A stretch of DNA of 64,000 nucleotides from a virus. The position numbers and the translations under genes are program-made. The first letter of the stretch is position 1. Every line of letters starts with the position of its first letter. Positions 34,536-51,070 of this stretch are shown in pieces. The DNA lies in IMG/VR virus record IMGVR_UViG_3300030329_005426, positions 32,001 to 96,000 of that record; one strand, written 5' to 3'. The notes under the pieces were generated by a model. That model had not been told where the DNA came from and did no database searches. It saw only the letters and a list, made by a program, of their open reading frames with translations.

Positions 34536-37500
34536 ATGGCTCTCCCACAAGGTAAAGCTAACGAAGAAATTTTACGTCTTTTAACGGGCCAAAAGAAACT
34601 GGCCCAATTAGCATTGGTATCTTCAACTGATGATAATATTAAAGATCAGGCTGGTCAGTTAAAAGAAATTATCGGTGAATTAAAAGGTATACGAACGAAT
34701 TCTGATTGGCATAAACGCTTTCTCCAAGACAAACATCAAGATGATTTAATGGCTCAGGCTAAAATGCTTGAGGCTTTGCGCGAGCAAGCTAGAGGTATTA
34801 ATCGTCTTAGAGCAGGTATGCTTGGTGCTGGTGCTGGTGGTCCGGGAGGACCAGGAGGACCGAATGATGGTAAAGGCGGTGGCGGACTACCATGGGGAGA
34901 TATAGCTGCAGGTGCCGCTGGTTTATATGGGGCGAATAAACTTCGTAAGGGTGTTCAAAATAAGCTCAAAGCAAATAAAGCAAATAAGCCGGGCCGTGTA
35001 CCTCCACGCGTACCTCCATCCTCGAAAACGCCTGGTGCTGGCTTAATTCAACGTGGTAAAGACGCCTTTAAGAGAGGCCTTGGTAGAACGCCATGGGGTA
35101 GAATATTCGGCGGCGGCGCAGTTGTATACGGTGCCGCAAAGAGTATGTTTGACGGCGGACCAACACCTAGTGTAAAGCCTGATCCTAATCGATTTAAAGG
35201 TGGGGCAACACCTAAAGTCATTCCTTTTCCCAATCAATTTAAAGGTGGACCAACACCTCGCGTAACGCCCAATCCTAATCTATTCAAAGGTGGAGCAACA
35301 CCTAGACCAGGACCATGGAAACCACCAGTAACTCCTGGTGCTGGCTTAATTCAACGTGGTAAAGACGCACTTAAAAAGATGAAACCTTCGCCGTGGGGGA
35401 TTGCGGCTCCCTTTGTCCTAGGTGCCGGATCATCATTACTAGCCCCTTCCGAAAAAACTAAAGACGGTAGAATTAGAATAAAGGGTGGTGCTGAAGTCGG
35501 TAAAGACGGTACTGCTGGTGAAAAAGGCAGATATATGTTAAGCCAGGCCGCGGAAGGAGCCATGTGGGGTTCTATGCTTGGTAAACCTGGAATGCTGGTT
35601 GGTGGCGCAGTCGGCGCGGTAATGGGTGGTGGAAAGCTTCTTCAAGGCCAAGAACAAGGACGTAATGAAAAAGCCCTTAAAAAGCATCTTGGTGCTTTGT
35701 CGGATACGGATAGTGATAAATCACATGAGGCCTTATTAAAGCTTCGCGCAGAAATCGGCAGCGCCTATGCACGTAAGGCAGGTCGTAAAGGTACAGCACA
35801 TATTGCACCATATGCTAAAAAATTGGTTGCGCTGGCGATACCTATTGCTAAGATGACTGAAAAAGATTGGAAAGACTTGCCGGCTAAAGATTTTGTAAAT
35901 TTAAGTAAAACGTTGGCTGTGTTACTTGGTGCCTTTAAGAAAACCTTTATTGCTGTTGATGCAGGATTAGATCCAAAGCAAGCAGATCAACTTTATGTGG
36001 GTTTGTTAGAAGCTAATGACAGAGTAATGACAGTTATGATGTCTGATAGAAAGAAATATAAAGGAGCAACGGCGACTACCGGTGGTGATGCAGCGATGTA
36101 TAAACAGGGTAAAGAAGCCGGCCCAGAAAAAGCCAAAAACTTTGCTCGATTGATAACTTCAATGGAACGTAAATCTGCTTCGCAATCTGCACCTAGAGCA
36201 AATGTGATGGGTGGAAATGAAGCAGCTGAAGCTATGTTTAAAGGACAGGTTAAACCTAATCCGAGTCCAACAAATACTAATCCAAGTCCAGCAACAGCAA
36301 GGCCTAATTCAGCATCAAAATTCAGCGCAGGTAAGTGGGATGATCCTAAAGTTGTTGCAGCACACTTACAAGCCAAACTGGATGCGAGATCCAAAATTGG
36401 AATGGATCTGGCTAATGATCCTGAGCTTGCTAAACGTGCTGCCTTTAAGAAAGAGTGGGGTGTGACTCAGGCATTCGGCAAGATGACTGGCAAGAAGGGA
36501 TGGAAAGAAGCAGCTGAAGCAGCTGGTATTGGACTCAAAAAAGGCCAATTCGGAGATACACACTTCGTAAAAACAGCATCAGAAAAAGCCGCAGCCGCTA
36601 ATAAAAACCAGATTGATCTGGCAAGAAAGCAATTAGAATCACTTCAGTTGGGTGGAAATTACTTAGGCGAAAGTAAGTATGTTTCAGGATTAAAAGGCGG
36701 AGCCGGCCGAAGAGCTCGCAGGAAATTTACCGACAGGTGGGACGATAACGTTGGAAAAAAGAATGTGTTACGAAAGCTGGAATGGCTTGCTGATCGAGGT
36801 GTAGATATCGGTCAGTTTGGTATGAGTAGAACGCAAAGCCAGGCCGACGGAAGATTAACGACAAAGATAGGTGGTTCATTAACCGGTGATTCAAGGCTAG
36901 CGATCAATAAACTATTCTCTAGTATGACTATGAAACAACATGGTGTCACAGGCTCGTTACCAGGTTATGCTAGAGGTACAGGCGGTAAGTTTGCACGCGG
37001 CGCGGCTATAGTAGGTGAAAATGGCCCAGAATTAATCACAGGTGCTCCGGGTGGATATCAAGTCAAACCGATGAAGATGATGAAAAATATACAATTCCAG
37101 TCAGGTGGAAGAGAAGTTATACACAGAGAAAAATTACCTGACGGTCGTAGAATAATAAAATATGCCGATGGATCATATGAAGAATCTGGAGCTTTCGGTA
37201 AGCGTCATTATGATGCTAACGGTAAATTAAGAATTGAAACATCACCAAGAGTAGCAGGTCTTTCAATAAGAAAATACTTTAATGCTAAAGGGGAGATGGT
37301 GAAAAAATGGGGCTCGATGCGCATGTCGGGGTTGGGTAAAAGTGGTAACGTTACTCTGACATCAGAAGGTGATATGCGCGATGGTAAAATTACACGGGGT
37401 GGTACCGGTGGTGAGTGGCGCACAAAAATATCGGCTCGTGGCCGAGAAACCGAACATTCTCCGAAGGGCCACGCGACTTTAACCGCCGGTTATATGGGTG

Positions 37501-37844
37501 GAAATGAAGAAGCTGGGATTCATTATCAATACGGTAAGGTGGATGCACGCATAAATTCTTCAAGAAATGTTGCGACTGGTAAGGAGACGATGAGCCTCGG
37601 TGGCAATGCTGAAGCCATGGGTAATAAAAATCTCTCTAGGTCGGGAATTTTACGTAAAATTTCGGAAATGGCTGCTACAGCTAAAGGTGGTGGTCAAGCG
37701 GCTCCAATCGTTGTTAATGCTCCGCAATCTACTAATATTTCTGGGGGTGGAGGATCTTCTGGTGGACCAGGCCTACAAATCGCAGATAATCCCATAGGAT
37801 CACGTAATCGCGTTATGGATCGTAAGAATACTCAGGGTGAGTAA
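34536..37844 (+). CDS. tape-measure-like / hub (gp29-like) protein
   Basis: 1102 aa, rich in Gly/Ala/Lys; follows gp26/gp51; contains LPGYARG...IVGENGPE and C-terminal PIVVNAPQSTN. Confidence 0.6.
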   Translation: MALPQGKANEEILRLLTGQKKLAQLALVSSTDDNIKDQAGQLKEIIGELKGIRTNSDWHKRFLQDKHQDDLMAQAKMLEALREQARGINRLRAGMLGAGAGGPGGPGGPNDGKGGGGLPWGDIAAGAAGLYGANKLRKGVQNKLKANKANKPGRVPPRVPPSSKTPGAGLIQRGKDAFKRGLGRTPWGRIFGGGAVVYGAAKSMFDGGPTPSVKPDPNRFKGGATPKVIPFPNQFKGGPTPRVTPNPNLFKGGATPRPGPWKPPVTPGAGLIQRGKDALKKMKPSPWGIAAPFVLGAGSSLLAPSEKTKDGRIRIKGGAEVGKDGTAGEKGRYMLSQAAEGAMWGSMLGKPGMLVGGAVGAVMGGGKLLQGQEQGRNEKALKKHLGALSDTDSDKSHEALLKLRAEIGSAYARKAGRKGTAHIAPYAKKLVALAIPIAKMTEKDWKDLPAKDFVNLSKTLAVLLGAFKKTFIAVDAGLDPKQADQLYVGLLEANDRVMTVMMSDRKKYKGATATTGGDAAMYKQGKEAGPEKAKNFARLITSMERKSASQSAPRANVMGGNEAAEAMFKGQVKPNPSPTNTNPSPATARPNSASKFSAGKWDDPKVVAAHLQAKLDARSKIGMDLANDPELAKRAAFKKEWGVTQAFGKMTGKKGWKEAAEAAGIGLKKGQFGDTHFVKTASEKAAAANKNQIDLARKQLESLQLGGNYLGESKYVSGLKGGAGRRARRKFTDRWDDNVGKKNVLRKLEWLADRGVDIGQFGMSRTQSQADGRLTTKIGGSLTGDSRLAINKLFSSMTMKQHGVTGSLPGYARGTGGKFARGAAIVGENGPELITGAPGGYQVKPMKMMKNIQFQSGGREVIHREKLPDGRRIIKYADGSYEESGAFGKRHYDANGKLRIETSPRVAGLSIRKYFNAKGEMVKKWGSMRMSGLGKSGNVTLTSEGDMRDGKITRGGTGGEWRTKISARGRETEHSPKGHATLTAGYMGGNEEAGIHYQYGKVDARINSSRNVATGKETMSLGGNAEAMGNKNLSRSGILRKISEMAATAKGGGQAAPIVVNAPQSTNISGGGGSSGGPGLQIADNPIGSRNRVMDRKNTQGE
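35031..35368 (+). repeat. 35-nt exact direct repeat plus FKGG(A/P)TP peptide repeats inside the tape-measure-like gene
   Basis: cctggtgctggcttaattcaacgtggtaaagacgc at 35031-35065 and 35334-35368, with F(D/K)GG(P/A)TP units between them. Confidence 0.85.
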
Positions 37845-38476: not shown

Positions 38477-39403
38477 TTAGTCTTCGTCAGCTAATTTCTG
38501 GAAGAACGAAAGATCTTCATCTTCATCCTCAGATGTAGCTGCTTGAGGAATTTCCTCTGCTACCGGTTCCGGTGCTTCTACAACTGGTGGTGTAGGAGCA
38601 GGAGCGGCTACATAATCCTCAGCAGTGGTAGACGGCTGAGCACCTGATCCATCAAGACCAAGTACCATATTCAGCTTGTCTTTAAGCTCATCATACGTCT
38701 TAAAATTTGACGCTGACAGAAACTCTTGCAGTGAATACTGCTTGTTCCAAGTCTCTTGCAGCTTCTCATCTTCACCTGCGTGCAATTCAGATGAGCTATC
38801 AAATTCAGACTTATCGTAATTACGGAAGCCTTCTACTTGACGGATTTTAAGCTTAAAATCAGCGCCTTCCCAGAAATCAAAAGGATTAACTGGGGACTCA
38901 TCCTCGAAGGAAGGATTCATAAGATCATTGATTTTATCAAAAATCTTTTTACCATAACGGTACAGGAATACCTGTCCTTCATTGGCCGGATTAGAACTAT
39001 CCTTAATAACAAGGATATTACTAATATAAGTCAATCGACGCTTCTGCTTACGAGCAAGATCTTTACCCGCATCATCACCACGATTCCACAGAACATTATT
39101 ATATTCTGATACCGGATCTTTCTTATTAAGAGTAGTCAGACTATTCTCAATATACCAACGCCCTGTTGGGCCCTGGAATCCATGAGTAAATACTCGAACC
39201 CATGGAAAGTCTTCTCCGGTAGGCGCAGGAAGAAAACGGATAACGGCATAGCCATTACCAGCCTTATCAACCTGTGGTTGCCAGAATCGATCATCCTTGA
39301 AGCTATTCTGCTGAGTACCTTCAGAAATCTTCTGCGATGCTTCGACTAGAGATGTGAGGGAAGTTTTACGGGACCTTTTAAGGTCAGCGAATGATGTTGA
39401 CAT
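38477..39403 (-). CDS. single-stranded DNA-binding protein (T4 gp32-like)
   Basis: DDRFW...GNGYAVIRFLPA, WYIENSLTT, YGKKIFDKI, NYDKSEF; acidic tail. Confidence 0.96.
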   Translation of the reverse strand: MSTSFADLKRSRKTSLTSLVEASQKISEGTQQNSFKDDRFWQPQVDKAGNGYAVIRFLPAPTGEDFPWVRVFTHGFQGPTGRWYIENSLTTLNKKDPVSEYNNVLWNRGDDAGKDLARKQKRRLTYISNILVIKDSSNPANEGQVFLYRYGKKIFDKINDLMNPSFEDESPVNPFDFWEGADFKLKIRQVEGFRNYDKSEFDSSSELHAGEDEKLQETWNKQYSLQEFLSASNFKTYDELKDKLNMVLGLDGSGAQPSTTAEDYVAAPAPTPPVVEAPEPVAEEIPQAATSEDEDEDLSFFQKLADED

Positions 39404-39463
39404 ACGTATTTCTCCTTATAGCAATGTATGTTTCGTATCCACAACTTTCATTATAAAGTTTAA

Positions 39464-40033
39464 TTATACAAGATATTGTTTAATTATTCCAGTAAATTTT
39501 GATTTAGGGAAATCTACAAAACCCTTGTAATTATTTATGAGATTATAGCACTCCTCGAATAATATATCGTCCAATACTTTATTCCAATACGCAGTGAAAT
39601 TCATGAGCCTGTCTAAGATACAGATCGTTTCAAGACTAACATCTCCCTGCATATAACTTACCAGAAGATCTGGATGTTGTCCATCCTTTACTTTTAATAG
39701 GTCGTCTGATAACTTCAATTGACCTATCTCTTGCTTAAACATATACGTTAAACTTTGCATTTTCTTTTGCCAGCCACGATATGAATCCTCTTTCATATCA
39801 CGGATAAATGTATTACCATCTACCCAGTTTGCTACGTAATAATCGACGATCTTGTCTTTATATTTTCTCTCAAGTTTTGCGAATGTATAGCGATCATTGC
39901 GTTTTAGAAATGCTTCATCGCTGGGCTTCCTCATCTTACCATTATACTTGTGGTAATCATATTTCGTAGTAAAATGAGCACGAATCACGCAGTAATGATA
40001 GAAAGCATTATAACCTTCTGTTACTTGCATCAT
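39464..40033 (-). CDS. helicase loader (T4 gp59-like)
   Basis: HFTTKYDYHKYNGK, KRNDRYTFAKL, GQHP...SLET; adjacent to gp32. Confidence 0.88.
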   Translation of the reverse strand: MMQVTEGYNAFYHYCVIRAHFTTKYDYHKYNGKMRKPSDEAFLKRNDRYTFAKLERKYKDKIVDYYVANWVDGNTFIRDMKEDSYRGWQKKMQSLTYMFKQEIGQLKLSDDLLKVKDGQHPDLLVSYMQGDVSLETICILDRLMNFTAYWNKVLDDILFEECYNLINNYKGFVDFPKSKFTGIIKQYLV

Positions 40034-40248
40034 ATATCAAGTTTAGCCTTTTTCTCAAGAAAATTTAAGTCAGTAGCTTCGGCTTCAATCTTAGCCTTAA
40101 TATTCGTATTCAATAACTTGGCTGCTGTTTCGATTTCAAATTCATTACGCTCGCAATAATGGACCACTGCATCCATATAAGGTACCTTCATTTCCTTTAC
40201 CATATCTTCAATCATTGCGCTGAATTTTGCCGTCGTCATAATATCCAT
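40030..40248 (-). CDS. late transcription coactivator (T4 gp33-like)
   Basis: YMDAVVHYCE..EIETAAKLL...KIEAEATDLNFL. Confidence 0.88.
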   Translation of the reverse strand: MDIMTTAKFSAMIEDMVKEMKVPYMDAVVHYCERNEFEIETAAKLLNTNIKAKIEAEATDLNFLEKKAKLDI

Positions 40249-40595
40249 TAATTGGGCATCCCACCGACCGTCTTTCTGATAATATCATCAGATAGTGGCT
40301 CTGGGTAATATAATTCAAAAGCTGCAACATCATCTACTGCTTCAAATGAATGAAATTCACCTGGTTTAACAGTTGTCCATTGTGTAGCACGAAGCGTTGT
40401 AGTATCGACTAGATCATAATCATTCTTATGCACATGAACCATTAAAGTGCCTGATGACACATAGAATAGGTTCCACTTATAGTCATGCTTATGTGTAGAA
40501 CAATAACCACCTTCTCTAATAGCAATTCGGTGGAATTCAATAAACGGATTTTTGAAGATTAATTCAGTTGTACCCCATACTTTACCAGCTTTCAT
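40248..40595 (-). CDS. cupin protein
   Basis: KVWG, CSTHKHDYKWNLFYVSSG, PGEFHSF. Confidence 0.8.
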   Translation of the reverse strand: MKAGKVWGTTELIFKNPFIEFHRIAIREGGYCSTHKHDYKWNLFYVSSGTLMVHVHKNDYDLVDTTTLRATQWTTVKPGEFHSFEAVDDVAAFELYYPEPLSDDIIRKTVGGMPN

Positions 40596-40864
40596 ATTGC
40601 TCTTCCCTTTCGCGAACCATCGGGATCTCGAGATTCGTCAACACATAATATTTGTTTAACCAAAGGGGGTGGGTTCATATCAGCCCAGTTAGCAATTGCA
40701 AATGCTTTTAACCCCTCAACATTCTCATCAACGTATTCAAAGCAGCTCGCCATTGTGGCAAACCGTAATGGTTGTCCGTTGGCCGTTTCAACAGAAATTG
40801 CATCGTTTCCTTGATACGTATAGTCTGCAAAGAACATCGTGATGAGAATGAAGATGGTTTTCAT
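40592..40864 (-). CDS. hypothetical exported protein
   Basis: Hydrophobic N-terminus; F.TMASC...ILC. Confidence 0.55.
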   Translation of the reverse strand: MKTIFILITMFFADYTYQGNDAISVETANGQPLRFATMASCFEYVDENVEGLKAFAIANWADMNPPPLVKQILCVDESRDPDGSRKGRAI

Positions 40865-40866
40865 AG

Positions 40867-41943
40867 TTACTTTCCTCCCCAATAGTAGTCAGCCGCGTAG
40901 CTGTATGGAGTAAAGGCAACATTCTTAAATGGGACTACTTTCGCAGCCCAAGCCTTCTGACTAGCCAGAACCTTCTTGAACCAAGGATTCTTTGCAGACT
41001 CCTCTTTGAACATCTGGTCAATAGTCTTCAGCTCAGCAACGAGGATATCAGCAGGCGTCTTCATTACCTTAACACCATGCTCTTTTACCATTCGCTTCAG
41101 TGCTTCGCCATTCTTTGCTTGGATGTCAGTCAGCCAATATAGATACGACTCATATGCAGCGGAACGAATAGACGTCTGTTGCTGTTTAGTAAGAGATCGC
41201 CAAACCTTACCGTTAATTAAAAGATCACCAGTATTGCTATGCTCATGCAAGCTATTCAGGTAGTAATATTTCCACATAGTAGGGAAGCCAAGTCTTTCAT
41301 CTTCAAGACCACCCACAAACTCTGCGCAGTTAATAACACCCTTCTGAGCAGCTGCTAGAATTTCACCTCCGGGCATTCCAATAGTTTGCATACCCATTCG
41401 AGCATACAGTTCTACATTAATACCTGTTTGTCGGCATTTAAAATTCTTTAAATCTGCCAGGTTTTTAATAGGCCGTTTGAACCAACCGAGTGGCTGGTTT
41501 TGAGTTGGCATTGCGGGAAACGGAACGACATCGAGCTTCAATACATCTTTATAAAAGGTTCGATATAGTTCCAGGCCTCCGCCATGGAACATCCAGCCTA
41601 GGAAGTCAATTCCGTCCATGCCATATGGACCTCCTAGCGGACTATTGAATAGACCAAGAGTTTTATCCTTGCCTACCCAATAATAACTTTGCGTCCATGC
41701 TGCATCAACAGCGCCAGATGACGTTGCATCAAGCACTTGAAATGCTGGAACTAAAGCACCTGATGGATATACCTTCATATTGACTTTACCGTCAGTAAGA
41801 GTTGATATCCGCTTTGACATGAATTCCATCTGCTCATTAAATGTTGATACAGATGGGAAACTGCTTGCTACTTTAAAAGTCTCGGCTTTAACATTTGTTG
41901 TAGCCATAAAAAAGATCGCGCAAAGCGCCACGAAAAATTTCAT
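40867..41943 (-). CDS. dctP: TRAP transporter substrate-binding protein (DctP; TakP-like monocarboxylate/2-oxoacid subfamily)
   Basis: Signal peptide; GALVPAFQVLDA, YYWVGK, QPLGWF, KCR, PGGEI, AEFVG, LHEH. Confidence 0.9.
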   Translation of the reverse strand: MKFFVALCAIFFMATTNVKAETFKVASSFPSVSTFNEQMEFMSKRISTLTDGKVNMKVYPSGALVPAFQVLDATSSGAVDAAWTQSYYWVGKDKTLGLFNSPLGGPYGMDGIDFLGWMFHGGGLELYRTFYKDVLKLDVVPFPAMPTQNQPLGWFKRPIKNLADLKNFKCRQTGINVELYARMGMQTIGMPGGEILAAAQKGVINCAEFVGGLEDERLGFPTMWKYYYLNSLHEHSNTGDLLINGKVWRSLTKQQQTSIRSAAYESYLYWLTDIQAKNGEALKRMVKEHGVKVMKTPADILVAELKTIDQMFKEESAKNPWFKKVLASQKAWAAKVVPFKNVAFTPYSYAADYYWGGK

Positions 41944-41957
41944 CTTTTAACCTCACT

Positions 41958-43340
41958 TCAATTTTTATTTGGTTGTATGGATTTCAGGAAATCTATCTCC
42001 TGTGTATTATATATGACGTCTTTATTATCTTGTTTAAGATAATTAGGGAGCCACGTCGCTGCGCCCGGAACTATGAATAATATAACTACTGCTAGGACCT
42101 GTATCCACATGAATGGGAACATAGCTTTAAAAATCATACCTAAATCCCATTCAGGAACAACCTGCTTCAAATAATAGGATGTTAATGCTACAGGTGGTGT
42201 AAGATAAGCGGTCTGTATAACTATACCTAATGCGGCTCCAAACCATATCAAATCAACTCCTGTAGACATTAACACTGGCATGAAGATTGGCAAGAATACT
42301 AATACTACAACAGGCCATTCAAAAGGCCATCCAAGCAGATGACATAATACCAAAATTGACCCTACAATTGCCCAACCGGGAATTGGTAATCCCTGTAAGG
42401 CAGATGTAATAAGTGTATCTCCTCCCAACCCTGCAAAAATAGCTCCAAAGATTGTAGAGCTAATAGCCAGTAACATAACAACCGCAGATGTGTTAGCTGT
42501 CTTCAATAACGCATCTTGCAAATTATTATAGTTTATTTTACCATGGATCGCTGCTAATGTCAACGCCCCAAATGCACCAAATGCCCCAGCTTCTGTTGAT
42601 GTCGCCAAACCAAATAACATCGATCCAAGAACAGCACTGATAAGAAAGGCAAGAGGTAAGACATCTATTAATACTCTGCCTATTAAACGCCATTCAAATG
42701 GTATATACTCCGGTGCAGGTGCTAATGTAGGGTTGTGCCATACCTTTAATAAGCAGTAGCCTATATACATTGCTGCTATCATTAGGCCTGGAATTAAGCT
42801 TGCTGCATATAGATCTATGATGTTAACATTCATCGTCGGAGCCATGACGATTAAAGGTATAGCTGGTGGAATCATAATAAGTGAGCCACCACCTGCAATT
42901 ACTCCAGCTGATAGCTTAGGATCATATCCGAGCCTCATCATACTAGGAGCAGCCATAATACCTAGCAAGGTTACGGCGGCACCTACAACACCTGTAGCAA
43001 GGCTAACCAGCACAGATACTATAATAACAACTATATAAAGGTTGCCAGGCACGCGAGTAAACAAATTCTTTAGGCTATCAAATAAGCCTTCAACAAGCCC
43101 AGCGCGCTCACATACATAGCCCATAAAAATAAACATCGGAATACTCATCAAGATTTCATCTGATAAGCCGCCCAACAAATTAAAATAGGCTAAATTGAAT
43201 GCTGGTAATGGTCCTAGCCCTATTATTCCAAAAACAAGTGCTAAGAAAATAAGTGTAAAGCTAACCGGAACGCCAACAAAAATACCAGCGATCATGGTCA
43301 ATAGCATTACAAGGGCTAGCCATTCCATTGGCGTATACAC
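41958..43340 (-). CDS. dctM: TRAP transporter large permease
   Basis: Many TM segments; SIPMFIFMG, ATGVVGA, MIPPAI, ATSTEAGAFGA, QTAYLTPP. Confidence 0.93.
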   Translation of the reverse strand: MYTPMEWLALVMLLTMIAGIFVGVPVSFTLIFLALVFGIIGLGPLPAFNLAYFNLLGGLSDEILMSIPMFIFMGYVCERAGLVEGLFDSLKNLFTRVPGNLYIVVIIVSVLVSLATGVVGAAVTLLGIMAAPSMMRLGYDPKLSAGVIAGGGSLIMIPPAIPLIVMAPTMNVNIIDLYAASLIPGLMIAAMYIGYCLLKVWHNPTLAPAPEYIPFEWRLIGRVLIDVLPLAFLISAVLGSMLFGLATSTEAGAFGAFGALTLAAIHGKINYNNLQDALLKTANTSAVVMLLAISSTIFGAIFAGLGGDTLITSALQGLPIPGWAIVGSILVLCHLLGWPFEWPVVVLVFLPIFMPVLMSTGVDLIWFGAALGIVIQTAYLTPPVALTSYYLKQVVPEWDLGMIFKAMFPFMWIQVLAVVILFIVPGAATWLPNYLKQDNKDVIYNTQEIDFLKSIQPNKN

Positions 43341-43780
43341 TTTTTCAATTCAATCAAACCCTGATATAATAACATAACCAAACCTAGAGTTATGCCGATT
43401 TTCATCGGCCATATTATTAACTGAGCCATCGTTGCACTACTTCGCTCATCGATAATAACACTGCGAAATGTATCGAAGAAGCTAATATATGCTAGCAATA
43501 AGAACGATGGAAAAAATAACAATACGTATGCTATAGCATCGATTTTAGCTTTAGTTCCTGTCGATAATTTATTCCAGTATAGATCGGTGCGTATATGAGA
43601 GCCGGTAGATAATGCATAACTACATCCCCATATGATTAGTATTGTATATAATTGGGGTGCGACATCTACGGCAAAGTCAAAGCGTAAATCAAAGAAATAT
43701 CGCCCTAGTACGTTTGTTACAATCAACAACACGATAATCAATGTAAACCATGAATATATCTTAGCTAACCAATCGCTCAT
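43316..43780 (-). CDS. dctQ: TRAP transporter small permease
   Basis: Four TM segments; VLGRYFF, YALSTGSHIRTD, WPMK; directly upstream of dctM. Confidence 0.9.
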   Translation of the reverse strand: MSDWLAKIYSWFTLIIVLLIVTNVLGRYFFDLRFDFAVDVAPQLYTILIIWGCSYALSTGSHIRTDLYWNKLSTGTKAKIDAIAYVLLFFPSFLLLAYISFFDTFRSVIIDERSSATMAQLIIWPMKIGITLGLVMLLYQGLIELKKCIRQWNG

Positions 43781-45245
43781 AATAATCTTTCAAATAATCA
43801 GATGAATCCATGCCGTCTAGGTGATATTTATTTCGATAGCTCTGTGCTCCCATATCTTTCTTGGAGCGATAATGTTTTCTCCATTTTTTATGTAATTCGC
43901 GGGCTTCTATAAGATTCATGGTATCGTGTTTCCAATACATCTCAGGATCAAATCTAAATTCAGTAAACCCATAACGAGCAGGATCCATACTATAATCAGG
44001 ATAATTCGATACTTTCACTAGATCATCTAAGTATGGATACACGTTAAGTGTTCTAAAACGAGCATTTAATATATCTTGTTCAATTGCCCAGCGAAATTGT
44101 CTCTGCTGTGATGTAGCTGTTTCTCCGGGTAAACCAATAATAAAATTACCAACAATAATTATACCCCGATCATTAAATTTAGTCAAGATGTCAATTATCT
44201 TTTCGGGTGATAAGCCTCTTCCTGCTGCCTTGGCAACTTTATGCGTTAAGCTTTCAATACCGACCTGTAATACCTTGAAGCCGCTATCAACCATCATATC
44301 AATAATATCAGGATATTTATTACACAGATCAGTGCGAGCATATGATGTAAACATTGGCTTGAATGGCAAGCTCTTAACAACAGAATAGATGTTCTTGATA
44401 TGTTCGTAATTATCGTTTATGCAATCATCTGTTAATTGAAACTTAGTAACACCAAACCTATTATAATATTCCATAAGCTGATATCGTAGACTCTCCATGT
44501 CTAACTTGACCGATTTACCTTTATCATAATGACAAAACTTACAGTTAAAAGCACATCCCCTACTTGTTTCGAGTGGCAACATCTCATGTGAACCGATAAC
44601 ATCTTTATCTTGGAATGGAGCTAAGGGGATATCATACTTCGGCCACTCAGGATAACGCCCGACATTAATAAATTTATATCCGTTGATATTTTCGTATTCT
44701 ATATCATCCCAATTTTCGATAACATCGGCTACAGCTCGATCACCCCAACCAATTATCCATCTGTCTATATAATCTTTAAGGGCAAATTGATCTGTATCAA
44801 TACCCCTAGCAAGAGTGTATATCTCATTTGTACGAGCACCACCACATATTATTTTAATGTCTGGGCATATTGATTTAATGCGCTCAAAGAATGATATAAT
44901 TTTTTCTGTAGATCCCCAACATAGATTCATACTGGATGATAGATAATTACCTGCTGTATAATTAAATTTCTGATCTTTAACCGACGCAAAGCAGTCACTG
45001 TACGTGTTTTTAATCTGTAACAATTCATCATTGTATAGAAAGGTATTCGATATACAAAGAAATTGTGTATCGTCCGTAACTAACTTTTCAAATACATTGA
45101 AAAAATCGCATTCTACCCTTGTGAAAAAATCAAATACTACTGTATCAAATCCACGTTTTCGAATTTCTTTTACGCATGCATATGAACCTAGATATCTAGT
45201 AAATGCCATGTGCGGTGATTCATTCAAAAAGATGACATCATTCAT
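43761..45245 (-). CDS. radical SAM enzyme (B12-binding-like architecture)
   Basis: ETSRGCAFNCKFC (CxxxCxxC), DDCIND, GIES, FIIGLPGET; N-terminal KIICGG. Confidence 0.88.
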   Translation of the reverse strand: MNDVIFLNESPHMAFTRYLGSYACVKEIRKRGFDTVVFDFFTRVECDFFNVFEKLVTDDTQFLCISNTFLYNDELLQIKNTYSDCFASVKDQKFNYTAGNYLSSSMNLCWGSTEKIISFFERIKSICPDIKIICGGARTNEIYTLARGIDTDQFALKDYIDRWIIGWGDRAVADVIENWDDIEYENINGYKFINVGRYPEWPKYDIPLAPFQDKDVIGSHEMLPLETSRGCAFNCKFCHYDKGKSVKLDMESLRYQLMEYYNRFGVTKFQLTDDCINDNYEHIKNIYSVVKSLPFKPMFTSYARTDLCNKYPDIIDMMVDSGFKVLQVGIESLTHKVAKAAGRGLSPEKIIDILTKFNDRGIIIVGNFIIGLPGETATSQQRQFRWAIEQDILNARFRTLNVYPYLDDLVKVSNYPDYSMDPARYGFTEFRFDPEMYWKHDTMNLIEARELHKKWRKHYRSKKDMGAQSYRNKYHLDGMDSSDYLKDYYERLVS

Positions 45246-45358
45246 TCATAACAACCTATGCGATGTATAATATAATGTATATGAAAAGAGCTAAACAACC
45301 AAGACCTAATAGGAGCTTGATAATTTCTTTAGCCCAATGTGACATACTTTACCTGCTT

Positions 45359-46165
45359 TCATTTATAAAAATTAATCTGATGAAGCTTTTTAATATGTCC
45401 TACAACGCGGCTTAAATCATCTAAATGTATCATATTAGGCCCATCAGATGGTGCGTTATCTGGATCTTGGTGTGTCTCCAAGAATATAGTATTTATGCAG
45501 CCAGTTGCCATTGCAGCATTAGCTAAAAGAGGAGCCATGCTCCTATCTCCACCGGAAGCATTGCCACGTCCACCAGGATGCTGGACGCTGTGAGTGCAGT
45601 CGAAACAAACAGGGTAACCATAATCGCTCATCACTTTCAGGCCGCGCATGTCGACCACTAAATTGTTATATCCAAAACTTGAACCACGTTCGGTAAGCAT
45701 TATTTCCGCGCCTCCGGTCGAGAAGTGTTCCATCTTCTTAACGACCTGTTCCATGTCATGAGGTGCTAGAAACTGGCCTTTCTTAATATTTACTGGCTTA
45801 TTTTCCTGTGCAGCAGCTTCTAGTAAATCCGTCTGTCTACATAAGAACGCAGGGATCTGAAGCATTGTTGCGGGGATTACTCCACACTGCCATATTTCAT
45901 GGACATCAGTGACAATATCAAGACCCATCTGAGCATGCTCAGCGAATGCATAAATTGCTTCGTCTATGCCTCTGCCTCGATAGCTATCTACGCTTGTTCT
46001 ATTTGCTTTATCGAACGATGTTTTGTAAGCCCAGTTGACATTATGAATTACCATAATTTCTTCAATCCAGCCTACCATATCATCCATATGTTGCCGTGAT
46101 TCAAATACACAAGGCCCAGCAATAATACTTAACTTATTTTCAATGACTCCGTTATAAAATCTCAT
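45359..46165 (-). CDS. kdsA: KDO-8-phosphate synthase (metal-dependent type)
   Basis: IIAGPCVFES, FDKANRTS, QIPAFLCRQTDL, NIKKGQF, ERG.SFGYNNLVVDMR, THSVQ. Confidence 0.95.
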   Translation of the reverse strand: MRFYNGVIENKLSIIAGPCVFESRQHMDDMVGWIEEIMVIHNVNWAYKTSFDKANRTSVDSYRGRGIDEAIYAFAEHAQMGLDIVTDVHEIWQCGVIPATMLQIPAFLCRQTDLLEAAAQENKPVNIKKGQFLAPHDMEQVVKKMEHFSTGGAEIMLTERGSSFGYNNLVVDMRGLKVMSDYGYPVCFDCTHSVQHPGGRGNASGGDRSMAPLLANAAMATGCINTIFLETHQDPDNAPSDGPNMIHLDDLSRVVGHIKKLHQINFYK

Positions 46166-46479
46166 ATCCATCCCATCATCATTTTTGTTTCCTCCGGCAC
46201 CATATCCATAGTAAATGGTGGATCAAATACTGTGTTAACTATGACACTCATTACTTCAGGCACATAGCCTGCTTTTTGTATATCATTGACAATTTGATCT
46301 GCAAATGGACAGAATGCACTTGTCAATGTATGTGTTATTGTAACTTCATACTCTCTTAAATCGATAGCAATATCATATATTAATCCTAGATCATATACAT
46401 TAATGCCTTCCATCTCTGGATCGAAAACCTCACGCAAATTTGCTATGATATGATCTTTATCAATCACCGGTCTTTCCAT
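46162..46479 (-). CDS. DUF59 / SufT-like Fe-S cluster assembly protein
   Basis: LREVFDPE..INVYDLGLIY, TLTSAFCP, VFDPPFT. Confidence 0.88.
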   Translation of the reverse strand: MERPVIDKDHIIANLREVFDPEMEGINVYDLGLIYDIAIDLREYEVTITHTLTSAFCPFADQIVNDIQKAGYVPEVMSVIVNTVFDPPFTMDMVPEETKMMMGWI

Positions 46480-46979
46480 TTGTAAAATATATGATCTTCG
46501 ATTCTACCAGTCCGGGTCTTCTTCTTAGCCCAACCTGGCGTCACATAGAAGGCATGGTAAAATACGGCGCCTTCAGTAAAATCAAATATGTGGGTTTCTA
46601 GGAACCAGGATGCCATAGCATAGGCTTCATTAAAAGCTCTTTTATTGCGTGGGTTATCGGATTTACCGTCACACCACCAGCTAAACTGACATCGATTTTT
46701 AATTGGATAGTATGTGCCGTCTTTTTTCCAAGATGCTCTTACAGGCCCTTGCAAGACTACTTCACAAACCGTATTTGGAAAATGAGTATCTTCGACTCTA
46801 TTACGTGTAACGAGAGCTACTGCTACTTGTCCTGCAATGCTCTGATCTCTAGCTTCATGATATATGTTCATCGCTAGACATTGGGTTTCGGTCTTCTGCC
46901 AATCATAAGCATGTGCCCAGCTATGCCAGAACACTACAATAAAAATTATCACGATGGCGTATAATATCTTTTTAAGCAT
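46464..46979 (-). CDS. cell wall hydrolase (SleB / Hydrolase_2)
   Basis: CLAMNIYHEAR, VTRNRV, FPNTVCEVV, CQFSWWCDGK, YHAFYVTPGW, HIFY. Confidence 0.92.
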   Translation of the reverse strand: MLKKILYAIVIIFIVVFWHSWAHAYDWQKTETQCLAMNIYHEARDQSIAGQVAVALVTRNRVEDTHFPNTVCEVVLQGPVRASWKKDGTYYPIKNRCQFSWWCDGKSDNPRNKRAFNEAYAMASWFLETHIFDFTEGAVFYHAFYVTPGWAKKKTRTGRIEDHIFYKWKDR

Positions 46980-47000
46980 TAGACCCTCTCTCAAATTTTA

Positions 47001-47104: not shown

Positions 47105-47465
47105 AAAGTGGTAGGTATTCTGTTGCTAGGAACCTACCGAACCCCATGGGAATTACGCCGCTAGTGCGAATTCCTCGGATGCAAAATTATCGTTTGCATT
47201 TAGAGTGTTTGACCTATTACGCGGTCAGCCGTGTTACTCCAATTCGCTATTAACTACCAGTCGATCCTATATCGCCCCCATCAGAAACAGACCAGCTCCA
47301 GACCGCGGTGTGCACACCAAAAGTCAACTGAATTTTATCGGTAGATAATGTGTTGGCTCGAGTTCCTCAATCATCTAGCGCCCAGATATTTACTGATCTG
47401 CTTGTGGTGGAGGCGACGGGAATTGCACCCGTGTCCTGTCTAGCTTTCACTCCTCTTCAACGTAA
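47105..47465 (-). ncRNA. ssrA: circularly permuted (two-piece) tmRNA, alphaproteobacterial type
   Basis: Acceptor piece ends ...GGGTGCAATTCCCGTCGCCTCCACCA at 47405. Coding piece starts GGGGGCGATATAGGATCGAC at 47279 (G3-U70 pair). Tag ORF 47197-47153 reads ANDNFASEEFALAA*. Outer ends approximate. Confidence 0.93.
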
Positions 47466-47475
47466 CAATATATTT

Positions 47476-47504
47476 ATTATAACTCCTTTGGATTAATTAT
47501 TCAA
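47476..47504 (-). promoter_or_regulatory. sigma70-type promoter of the tmRNA gene
   Basis: TTGAAT-N17-TATAAT immediately upstream. Confidence 0.75.
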
Positions 47505-47518
47505 CACTTTTGTTGACT

Positions 47519-50719: not shown

Positions 50720-50796
50720 TGGTCGGGGATGCAAGATTCGAACTTGCGACCCTCTGCTCCCAAAGCAGATGCGCTACCAGGCTGCGCTAATCCCCG
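50720..50796 (-). tRNA. tRNA-Pro(TGG)
   Basis: CGGGGATTAGCGCAGCCTGGTAGCGCATCTGCTTTGGGAGCAGAGGGTCGCAAGTTCGAATCTTGCATCCCCGACCA; full cloverleaf with encoded CCA. Confidence 0.96.
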
Positions 50797-50975
50797 CTTT
50801 CTACGATGTAGAGTTTTTTTTCATGAACAGCAACACGGGCATATGGGTCATTAATTTTAATATCATTCACCCTTAGGCCGCCATTCTTGATCTGCCTCCT
50901 AGCTTCACTCTTAGACTTGACTAAACCAGATATAACAAAAAATTCAGCTACATCCATACCTATCTGGCTTTTCAT
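50787..50975 (-). CDS. stand-alone S4 RNA-binding domain (TyrRS C-terminal-like)
   Basis: [26 protein letters not shown]; GAGG RBS before ATG 50975. Confidence 0.75.
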
Positions 50976-50994
50976 TCTCGCCTCATCTTGAAAG

Positions 50995-51070
50995 TGGTGC
51001 CGCCGCACGGACTTGAACCGCGGACCTGAGGTTTACAAAACCCCTGCTCTACCGACTGAGCTACGACGGC
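50995..51070 (-). tRNA. tRNA-Thr(TGT)
   Basis: GCCGTCGTAGCTCAGTCGGTAGAGCAGGGGTTTTGTAAACCTCAGGTCCGCGGTTCAAGTCCGTGCGGCGGCACCA. Confidence 0.95.

Follow-up and report, generated by a model that had tools for sequence, protein, structure and literature searches.

A probable self-contained TRAP importer in T4-like marine phages

We analysed a 64,000-nucleotide stretch of viral DNA (the window; bases 32001–96000 of the 154,113-bp IMG/VR virus record IMGVR_UViG_3300030329_005426, a linear metagenome assembly estimated by CheckV to be 85% complete) and found in it all three genes of a tripartite ATP-independent periplasmic (TRAP) transporter, dctQ, dctM and dctP. The record is a ~154-kb T4-like myovirus genome, and virus hallmark genes lie on both sides of the cassette, as they do in its relatives. 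Judging from sequences and a structural model, we favour as probable the reading that this lytic T4-like marine phage encodes a working, self-contained TRAP importer. In sequence, the system shows every testable feature of a TakP-type TRAP transporter, and because many related uncultured phages keep the cassette under purifying selection, it is probable that these phages equip the cells they infect with a separate, virus-encoded uptake system.

Results

A complete and tightly packed operon

The small TRAP membrane subunit, DctQ (43316–43780, minus strand; 154 amino acids (aa)), matches PF04290 across profile positions 1–130 of 132 (E 2.9e-17, 63 bits), and inspection of its translation by eye, without a transmembrane predictor, reveals four hydrophobic segments. 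The large membrane subunit, DctM (41958–43340, minus strand), matches PF06808 with 211 bits across profile positions 2–412 of 413; among the nearest cellular DctM proteins, 241 columns reach 97% conservation or more, and the phage protein keeps 158 of them. Its gene could start at an ATG at 43328 (456 aa) or a GTG at 43340 (460 aa); the ATG is the likely start, and the 456-aa form is the recorded protein P0124. The TakP-type periplasmic solute-binding protein, DctP (40867–41943, minus strand; 358 aa), matches PF03480 with 120.8 bits and passes the NF037995 TRAP_S1 model (74.5 bits, cut-off 50). There are no internal stops in any of the three genes. With every subunit intact and matched by Pfam over its full length, the system is complete, as a prior sequence-only reading of this DNA had proposed.

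The genes are packed as an operon. The start of dctQ lies 20 nt before the stop of an upstream radical SAM gene, creating a 20-nt overlap, the start of dctM falls inside the final dctQ codons, and only 14 nt separate dctM from dctP, whose ATG is preceded by GAGG. DctP begins with a Sec signal peptide at residues 1–20 (MKFFVALCAIFFMATTNVKA, that is MKFF...NVKA, cut before ETF) without a lipobox, and all ten viral DctP copies examined have such a signal peptide. A free periplasmic receptor of this kind would imply a Gram-negative host.

DctP resembles cation-dependent carboxylate receptors

The best sequence matches of DctP in the PDB are 7UG8 (E 4.7e-49) and TakP, 2HZK (E 1.3e-48). An AlphaFold2 model of the protein (predicted local distance difference test score 83.4) returns 7UG8 and 2HZL as its top Foldseek matches, with template modelling (TM) scores of 0.83–0.92, followed by 4PET, 5CM6 and 2ZZV at TM scores of 0.8–0.9. 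Several of these structures hold small carboxylates together with a cation: 2-oxovalerate and Ca in 7UG8, pyruvate and Na in 2HZL, and lactate and Ca in 2ZZV. The helices predicted at residues 298–318, 320–343 and 345–355 fall in the C-terminal part of the model, and the alignment extends to residue 348 of the 365 in TakP.

In TakP, pyruvate and Na+ are bound by Tyr100, Gln156, Arg177, Glu214, the Trp215 carbonyl and Glu240 (PMC1839085). A HMMER alignment places these opposite Y88, Q150, R171, E208, F209 and E234 of the phage protein, which sit within the motifs YYWVGK (Y88), QPLGWF (Q150), AEFVG (E208 and F209) and HE (E234), and at the conserved arginine (R171). Five of the six positions (Y88, Q150, R171, E208 and E234) do not vary among 10 viral and 67 cellular homologs, including the carboxylate-binding arginine, R171, equivalent to TakP Arg177, which is present in 77 of the 77 sequences compared. 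At position 209, where the contact is made through the main chain, the viral clade has F and cellular homologs have W. Because the TakP ligand positions and the best fold matches agree, DctP can be assigned, from its sequence and model, to the cation-dependent TakP and lactate-binding group, and both the motifs and the subfamily named in the sequence-only reading are borne out.

The trio recurs in related phage genomes

A scan of IMG/VR yielded 17 contigs with DctP proteins 76–86% identical to that of the window phage. The order dctQ-dctM-dctP is kept wherever these contigs extend far enough, DctQ is 57–71% identical in the viral relatives, and the genes flanking the cassette are homologs of core genes of the window phage. 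Additionally, a DctP of 86% identity (P0002) occurs in 123 index blocks, 43 of them with contigs of 50–200 kb, which measure ~142 kb in those read; the sample labels there are LUOE20-1. Thus a survey of viral databases finds the same trio both in the IMG/VR contigs and in repeatedly assembled ~142-kb genomes. Among 50,697 GenBank phage records, a set that may lack those near this genome, blastn and tblastn detected no close TRAP genes; the matches obtained there were only 22–29% identical and lay in fragmentary or misfiled records.

Base composition is that of the phage: the GC content of the cassette is 0.41 (0.33–0.39 at third codon positions) against 0.393 for the genome, whereas the nearest cellular dctP genes average 0.64.

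A virus-only clade under purifying selection

Across a collection of 5.8 billion proteins, the identity of DctP matches drops from 62–100% to at most 55%, with a corresponding drop for DctM from 59–100% to at most 52%. The high-identity DctP group occurs on contigs as long as 217 kb, and every member examined sits among viral genes. Among 185,579 species genomes the best DctP matches are 48–55% identical and belong to metagenome-assembled genomes (MAGs) of soil and groundwater Burkholderiales, Rokubacteria and Alphaproteobacteria. The best match in 401 sampled Alphaproteobacteria is 53% identical, and small, streamlined genomes of 1.2–1.9 Mb offer only 32–37%. Our donor search, covering both genome sets, thus returned nothing above 55% identity.

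A maximum-likelihood tree groups the 16 viral DctP sequences as a single clade (SH-aLRT 100), which is set apart by a stem of 1.08 changes per site and has all sampled cellular relatives as its sister group. No sampled cellular homolog is nested inside this clade, and the nearest ones are therefore not its donors. The most distant viral-type branch (contigs L104–L106; we refer to contigs by L numbers) has a DctP of 62% identity, the same Q-M-P order and a DctQ of 178–189 aa. Genes for ClpP and a D-Glu cyclase-like protein are among its neighbours, as is a radical SAM gene; these contigs carry no hallmark genes but are probably viral. This pattern fits one old capture followed by long residence in phages, with no identifiable donor.

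Pairwise dN/dS values (Nei-Gojobori, pairs with unsaturated dS only) are 0.06–0.15 for DctP, 0.07–0.15 for DctM and 0.09–0.25 for DctQ. Such values indicate that all three genes are under purifying selection and that their function has been maintained.

Cassette movement and an insertion scar

The cassette occupies at least four genome contexts among the viral relatives. It lies beside gp41, UvsX and gp43 (L002, L107–L110), just after gp23 with gp23 and UvsW as flanks (L003, L004, L014, L017), near gp13–15 and gp17 (L005–L012, L015, L016, L018) or, in the window phage, between kdsA and a cupin gene. In six related phage loci the order is kdsA-cupin-gp33-gp59-gp32, with a kdsA-cupin gap of 67–861 nt and no TRAP genes, an arrangement that we read as the empty site.

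At this site the window phage carries an inserted block of 4.75 kb (40596–45342, minus strand), comprising an open reading frame (ORF) for a 29-aa membrane peptide, the radical SAM gene, dctQMP and a 90-aa ORF. The block is bounded by a 20-nt direct repeat (repeat family D4) whose copies are 19/20 identical. The right copy (40576–40595, minus strand) coincides with the genuine start of the cupin gene (MKAGKVWGTTE...), an N-terminus conserved in relatives (VKAGKIWGQTE in L121). The left copy (45343–45362, minus strand) comes immediately behind the kdsA stop and is a cupin-gene relic, corresponding to the first 20 nt of that gene (ATGAAAGCAGGTAAAGTATG, encoding MKAGKV); beyond it the sequence is unrelated. 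The cassette has thus moved within phage genomes, and the event in the window left a scar.

The radical SAM gene (43761–45245, minus strand) encodes a 494-aa B12-binding, methyltransferase-like protein with matches to radical SAM families, the best of them to the PhpK family and far under its cut-off. The 29-aa hydrophobic peptide (MSHWAKEIIKLLLGLGCLALFIYIILYIA; about 45256–45345, minus strand) and the 90-aa exported or membrane protein with a hydrophobic N-terminus (40592–40864, minus strand) have no family match, and these two bounding ORFs do not accompany the cassette in relatives.

The carrier phage and its host

The T4-like core set found elsewhere in the genome includes gp23, gp17, gp13–15, gp41, UvsX and UvsW. 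Its gp23 is 66–67% identical to the counterparts in pelagimyophage Mosig and the OM43 phage Melnitz, and its gp32 is ~54% identical to those of cyanomyoviruses and Melnitz. Downstream of the cassette, the backbone (38477–40595, minus strand) consists of the cupin gene (40248–40595; PF07883), the late-transcription coactivator gp33 (40030–40248; PF16805), gp59 (39464–40033) and gp32 (38477–39403), the last two with Pfam matches given as PF08993 and PF08804, all on the minus strand, and a 2-oxoglutarate (2OG)-Fe(II) oxygenase follows. The adjacency of the TRAP genes to gp33, gp59 and gp32 that the earlier reading described is therefore real. Upstream of the radical SAM gene lie the backbone gene kdsA (45359–46171, minus strand; KDO8P synthase, NF003543 342 bits, cut-off 242), a SufT-like Fe-S assembly protein and a cell-wall hydrolase, which together with the radical SAM gene span 43761–46994 on the minus strand, and then a transfer-messenger RNA (tmRNA).

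That tmRNA is permuted and of alpha type (47107–47508, minus strand; RF01849, 110 bits), encodes the tag ANDNFASEEFALAA and has a sigma-70-like site at 47504–47476. Genes for tRNA-Pro and tRNA-Thr lie at 50720–51070. On the opposite strand, at 34536–37844 (plus strand), a 1102-aa ORF without a Pfam match occupies a GC-richer patch (0.44–0.47).

The alpha type of the tmRNA is a hint of an alphaproteobacterial host. Over 138 nt it is 74% identical to the SsrA of Melnitz, which with a Rhodobacter phage provides its only phage matches by DNA similarity; no match was found among the 401 Alphaproteobacteria. Melnitz infects OM43 (PMC9004378). With a related tmRNA in an OM43-infecting phage, and no cellular DctP above 55% identity, the proposal of an oligotrophic alphaproteobacterial host is not established. 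We also considered a cyanophage identity, and the failure to find psbA in the 154-kb record (85% complete) suggests that this is not a cyanophage.

The cassette genes are co-oriented and overlapping with the gp33/59/32 replication block. The late-promoter motif TATAAATA does not occur between 33 and 58 kb, and its count across the window is not above chance. The shared orientation and overlap, and the lack of the motif in that 33–58-kb interval, point weakly to expression at an early or middle stage.

A second TRAP system and a DctP paralog

The same phage carries a TAXI-type TRAP system by regA, outside the window (L023:6352–10485, corresponding to G000 142352–146485). Its receptor scores 123 bits against TRAP_TAXI (cut-off 84) and its fused TRAP permease of 459 aa scores 330 bits (cut-off 321). 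The system also includes a 339-aa protein with no family assignment and a porin-like protein with a weak Porin_1 match (24.2 bits, gathering score 23.7), and homologs of it are found within a few kb of dctQMP in L005, L009, L011, L012 and L016. In three relatives, a 319-aa DctP paralog lies directly downstream of dctP (L007:8158–9117, also L008 and L018; PF03480, 3e-43); it has no signal peptide and starts MSHKVKWVIAHE.

Discussion

Export of a receptor, capture of a ligand, its delivery to the membrane subunits and uptake driven by an ion gradient are the established steps of TRAP systems. In the phage system that we propose, DctQ and DctM would enter the inner membrane of the infected, Gram-negative cell, while host Sec would export DctP, whose leader would be cleaved after VKA. 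Periplasmic DctP would then capture a small carboxylate plus a cation and hand the ligand to DctQM for uptake powered by an ion gradient. The most likely ligand is a 2-oxo or 2-hydroxy monocarboxylate (pyruvate, 2-oxobutyrate or 2-oxovalerate) or lactate, and expression would probably be early or middle, with the replication genes. The likely benefit would be that a nutrient-poor cell has additional carbon and energy with which to replicate the phage. What is taken up, when the genes are expressed and how the phage benefits are our inferences.

Several observations weigh against this account. DctM scores 222 bits against TIGR00786, under the cut-off of 268, and DctP only 37 bits against TIGR00787, also under its cut-off, scores that we take to mark a divergent lineage. 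The dctM of one ~142-kb assembly (L109:8638–9980) is called as a pair of ORFs, 360 and 96 aa long. The gene is whole in three sister assemblies, and the split may reflect a frameshift, an error in sequencing or decay within a single population. A scan for sigma-70 promoters gave 38 sites where 35.8 were expected, which is at chance level. Finally, changes fixed in the viral clade stand beside the ligand positions (H83W, P149N, A151P, D205N, W209F and P230N); thus the exact ligand may differ from that of TakP.

The last point leads to an alternative in which the importer works but takes a ligand class other than that of TakP. Candidates would be glycolate or glyoxylate, acrylate or 3-hydroxypropionate, an acid derived from an amino acid, or some other carboxylate that is plentiful in seawater. 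No cellular homolog exceeds 55% identity to the viral clade, fixed substitutions flank every ligand position, and solved members of the subfamily already span pyruvate, 2-oxovalerate and lactate. However, the TakP set of cation-plus-carboxylate ligands is invariant, and this set selects specifically for carboxylates that bear an oxygen substituent at C2; we consider a different ligand class unlikely. We judge it similarly improbable that the importer supplies a specific precursor to a phage tailoring or biosynthetic pathway, for lipopolysaccharide and 3-deoxy-D-manno-octulosonic acid or for modification of virions or nucleic acids. The cassette did arrive in one block with the B12/radical-SAM methyltransferase-like enzyme, between kdsA, the SufT-like Fe-S factor, the cupin and the 2OG-Fe(II) oxygenase; an oxygenase of this type lies directly upstream of dctQ in L016-type relatives, and the leaderless, and so cytoplasmic, DctP paralog adjoins dctP in L007, L008 and L018. 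Yet no enzyme partner is conserved over the four or more contexts, and only dctQ, dctM and dctP travel together. The suggestion of the sequence-only reading that the importer possibly feeds the several 2OG-type oxygenases of the phage found no support: 2-oxoglutarate is a poor ligand of TakP (PMC1839085), which makes such feeding unlikely, and no oxygenase stays with the cassette through every context.

Apart from uptake, the exported DctP or the membrane subunits might block superinfection or act as a sensor, or the cassette might be a neutral passenger. Exclusion is a common task of phage proteins in the membrane and periplasm, and the ORFs adjoining the cassette encode small exported or membrane peptides. 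We think any such reading very improbable, given the strong purifying selection on all three subunits, ligand residues included, and the retention of the complete trio through several relocations. Least probable by far, to the point of being negligible, is an artefact of chimeric assembly or of host DNA misjoined to phage DNA. The record is a linear, incomplete metagenome assembly, but T4-like core genes stand on both sides of the cassette, share its strand and have reading frames that overlap, the GC content of the cassette equals that of the phage, and the trio lies inside T4-like genomes in independent assemblies from many samples. The junction repeat is also an unlikely source of a misjoin, because the exact runs shared by its copies, of only 8 and 11 nt, are presumably shorter than usual assembler k-mers. 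Together, the base composition, the recurrent assemblies, the core-gene flanks and the repeat analysis exclude a chimera and uphold the claim that the transporter is encoded by the phage.

A working importer therefore remains our preferred reading, and its consequences would reach beyond this phage. If the system is active, infected marine heterotrophs would import 2-oxo and 2-hydroxy acids via viral proteins, the genes would represent a new class of viral metabolic genes, and viruses would contribute a term of their own to how labile organic acids turn over in the ocean. More tentatively, a widespread marine T4-like lineage may long have kept an import apparatus of its own, made up of a TakP-type TRAP system, a TAXI-type TRAP system and a porin, through which infected cells might gain uptake that the host lacks or has only in distantly related form. 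If this is true, infection alters which dissolved organic acids are drawn from seawater. The genes have been under selection for long enough to form a deep clade of their own and to take on phage base composition. Additionally, with both a scar and an empty site, the insertion illustrates cleanly how a cassette moves from one variable site to another in T4-like genomes.

Comparison with known systems

TakP (RSP_0097/SmoM of Rhodobacter sphaeroides; 2HZK and 2HZL) is a close point of reference. Phage DctP shares with it the DctP-family fold (TM scores of 0.85–0.90), the correspondence of the six Na+- and pyruvate-binding positions and the partnership with DctQ and DctM subunits, and its model predicts long C-terminal helices as well. 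It differs in being phage-encoded, in an identity of only ~32% (Foldseek alignment) and in the replacement of Trp215, a main-chain contact, by Phe. The receptor of Synechococcus CC9311 (7UG8) is the top match by sequence and by fold; it too has a marine source, and its own feature is the cation-assisted binding of a carboxylate. Grouped with it as near structures are 4PET, 5CM6 and 2ZZV, receptors for pyruvate or lactate. However, 7UG8 is a cellular protein to which phage DctP is 31% identical, and because the residues lining the two pockets differ, its ligand cannot be transferred to the phage receptor. Within the phages themselves, the leaderless DctP paralog belongs to PF03480 like the DctP of the window, which in contrast carries an export signal and is encoded together with DctQM.

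The nearest cellular homologs are the COG4663/4664/4665 TRAP operons in the MAGs of soil and groundwater Burkholderiales, Rokubacteria and Alphaproteobacteria. They encode the same three subunits, with identities to the window proteins of 48–55% for DctP, 45–50% for DctM and 31–39% for DctQ. Whereas the cellular operons run P-Q-M, the phage cassettes run Q-M-P; cellular DctQ is ~183 aa long and that of the IMG/VR viral relatives 147–158 aa, and cellular GC content is ~64% against ~40% in phages.

To our knowledge, the phage uptake genes so far described, such as pstS, are single parts plugged into host machinery. The product of pstS is a single binding protein that needs a host membrane permease, whereas the phage described here supplies the receptor and both membrane subunits. 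What the two cases share is the presence of a host-type uptake part in variable regions of marine T4-like phages, as in the pstS of cyanophages and pelagimyophages (PMC12379486). A full-text literature search returned no report of a phage or viral TRAP transporter, and neither the pelagimyophage paper nor the Melnitz paper mentions TRAP. What is new in the system reported here is a lytic phage as its carrier, the presence of all of its parts and a deep clade composed of viruses only.

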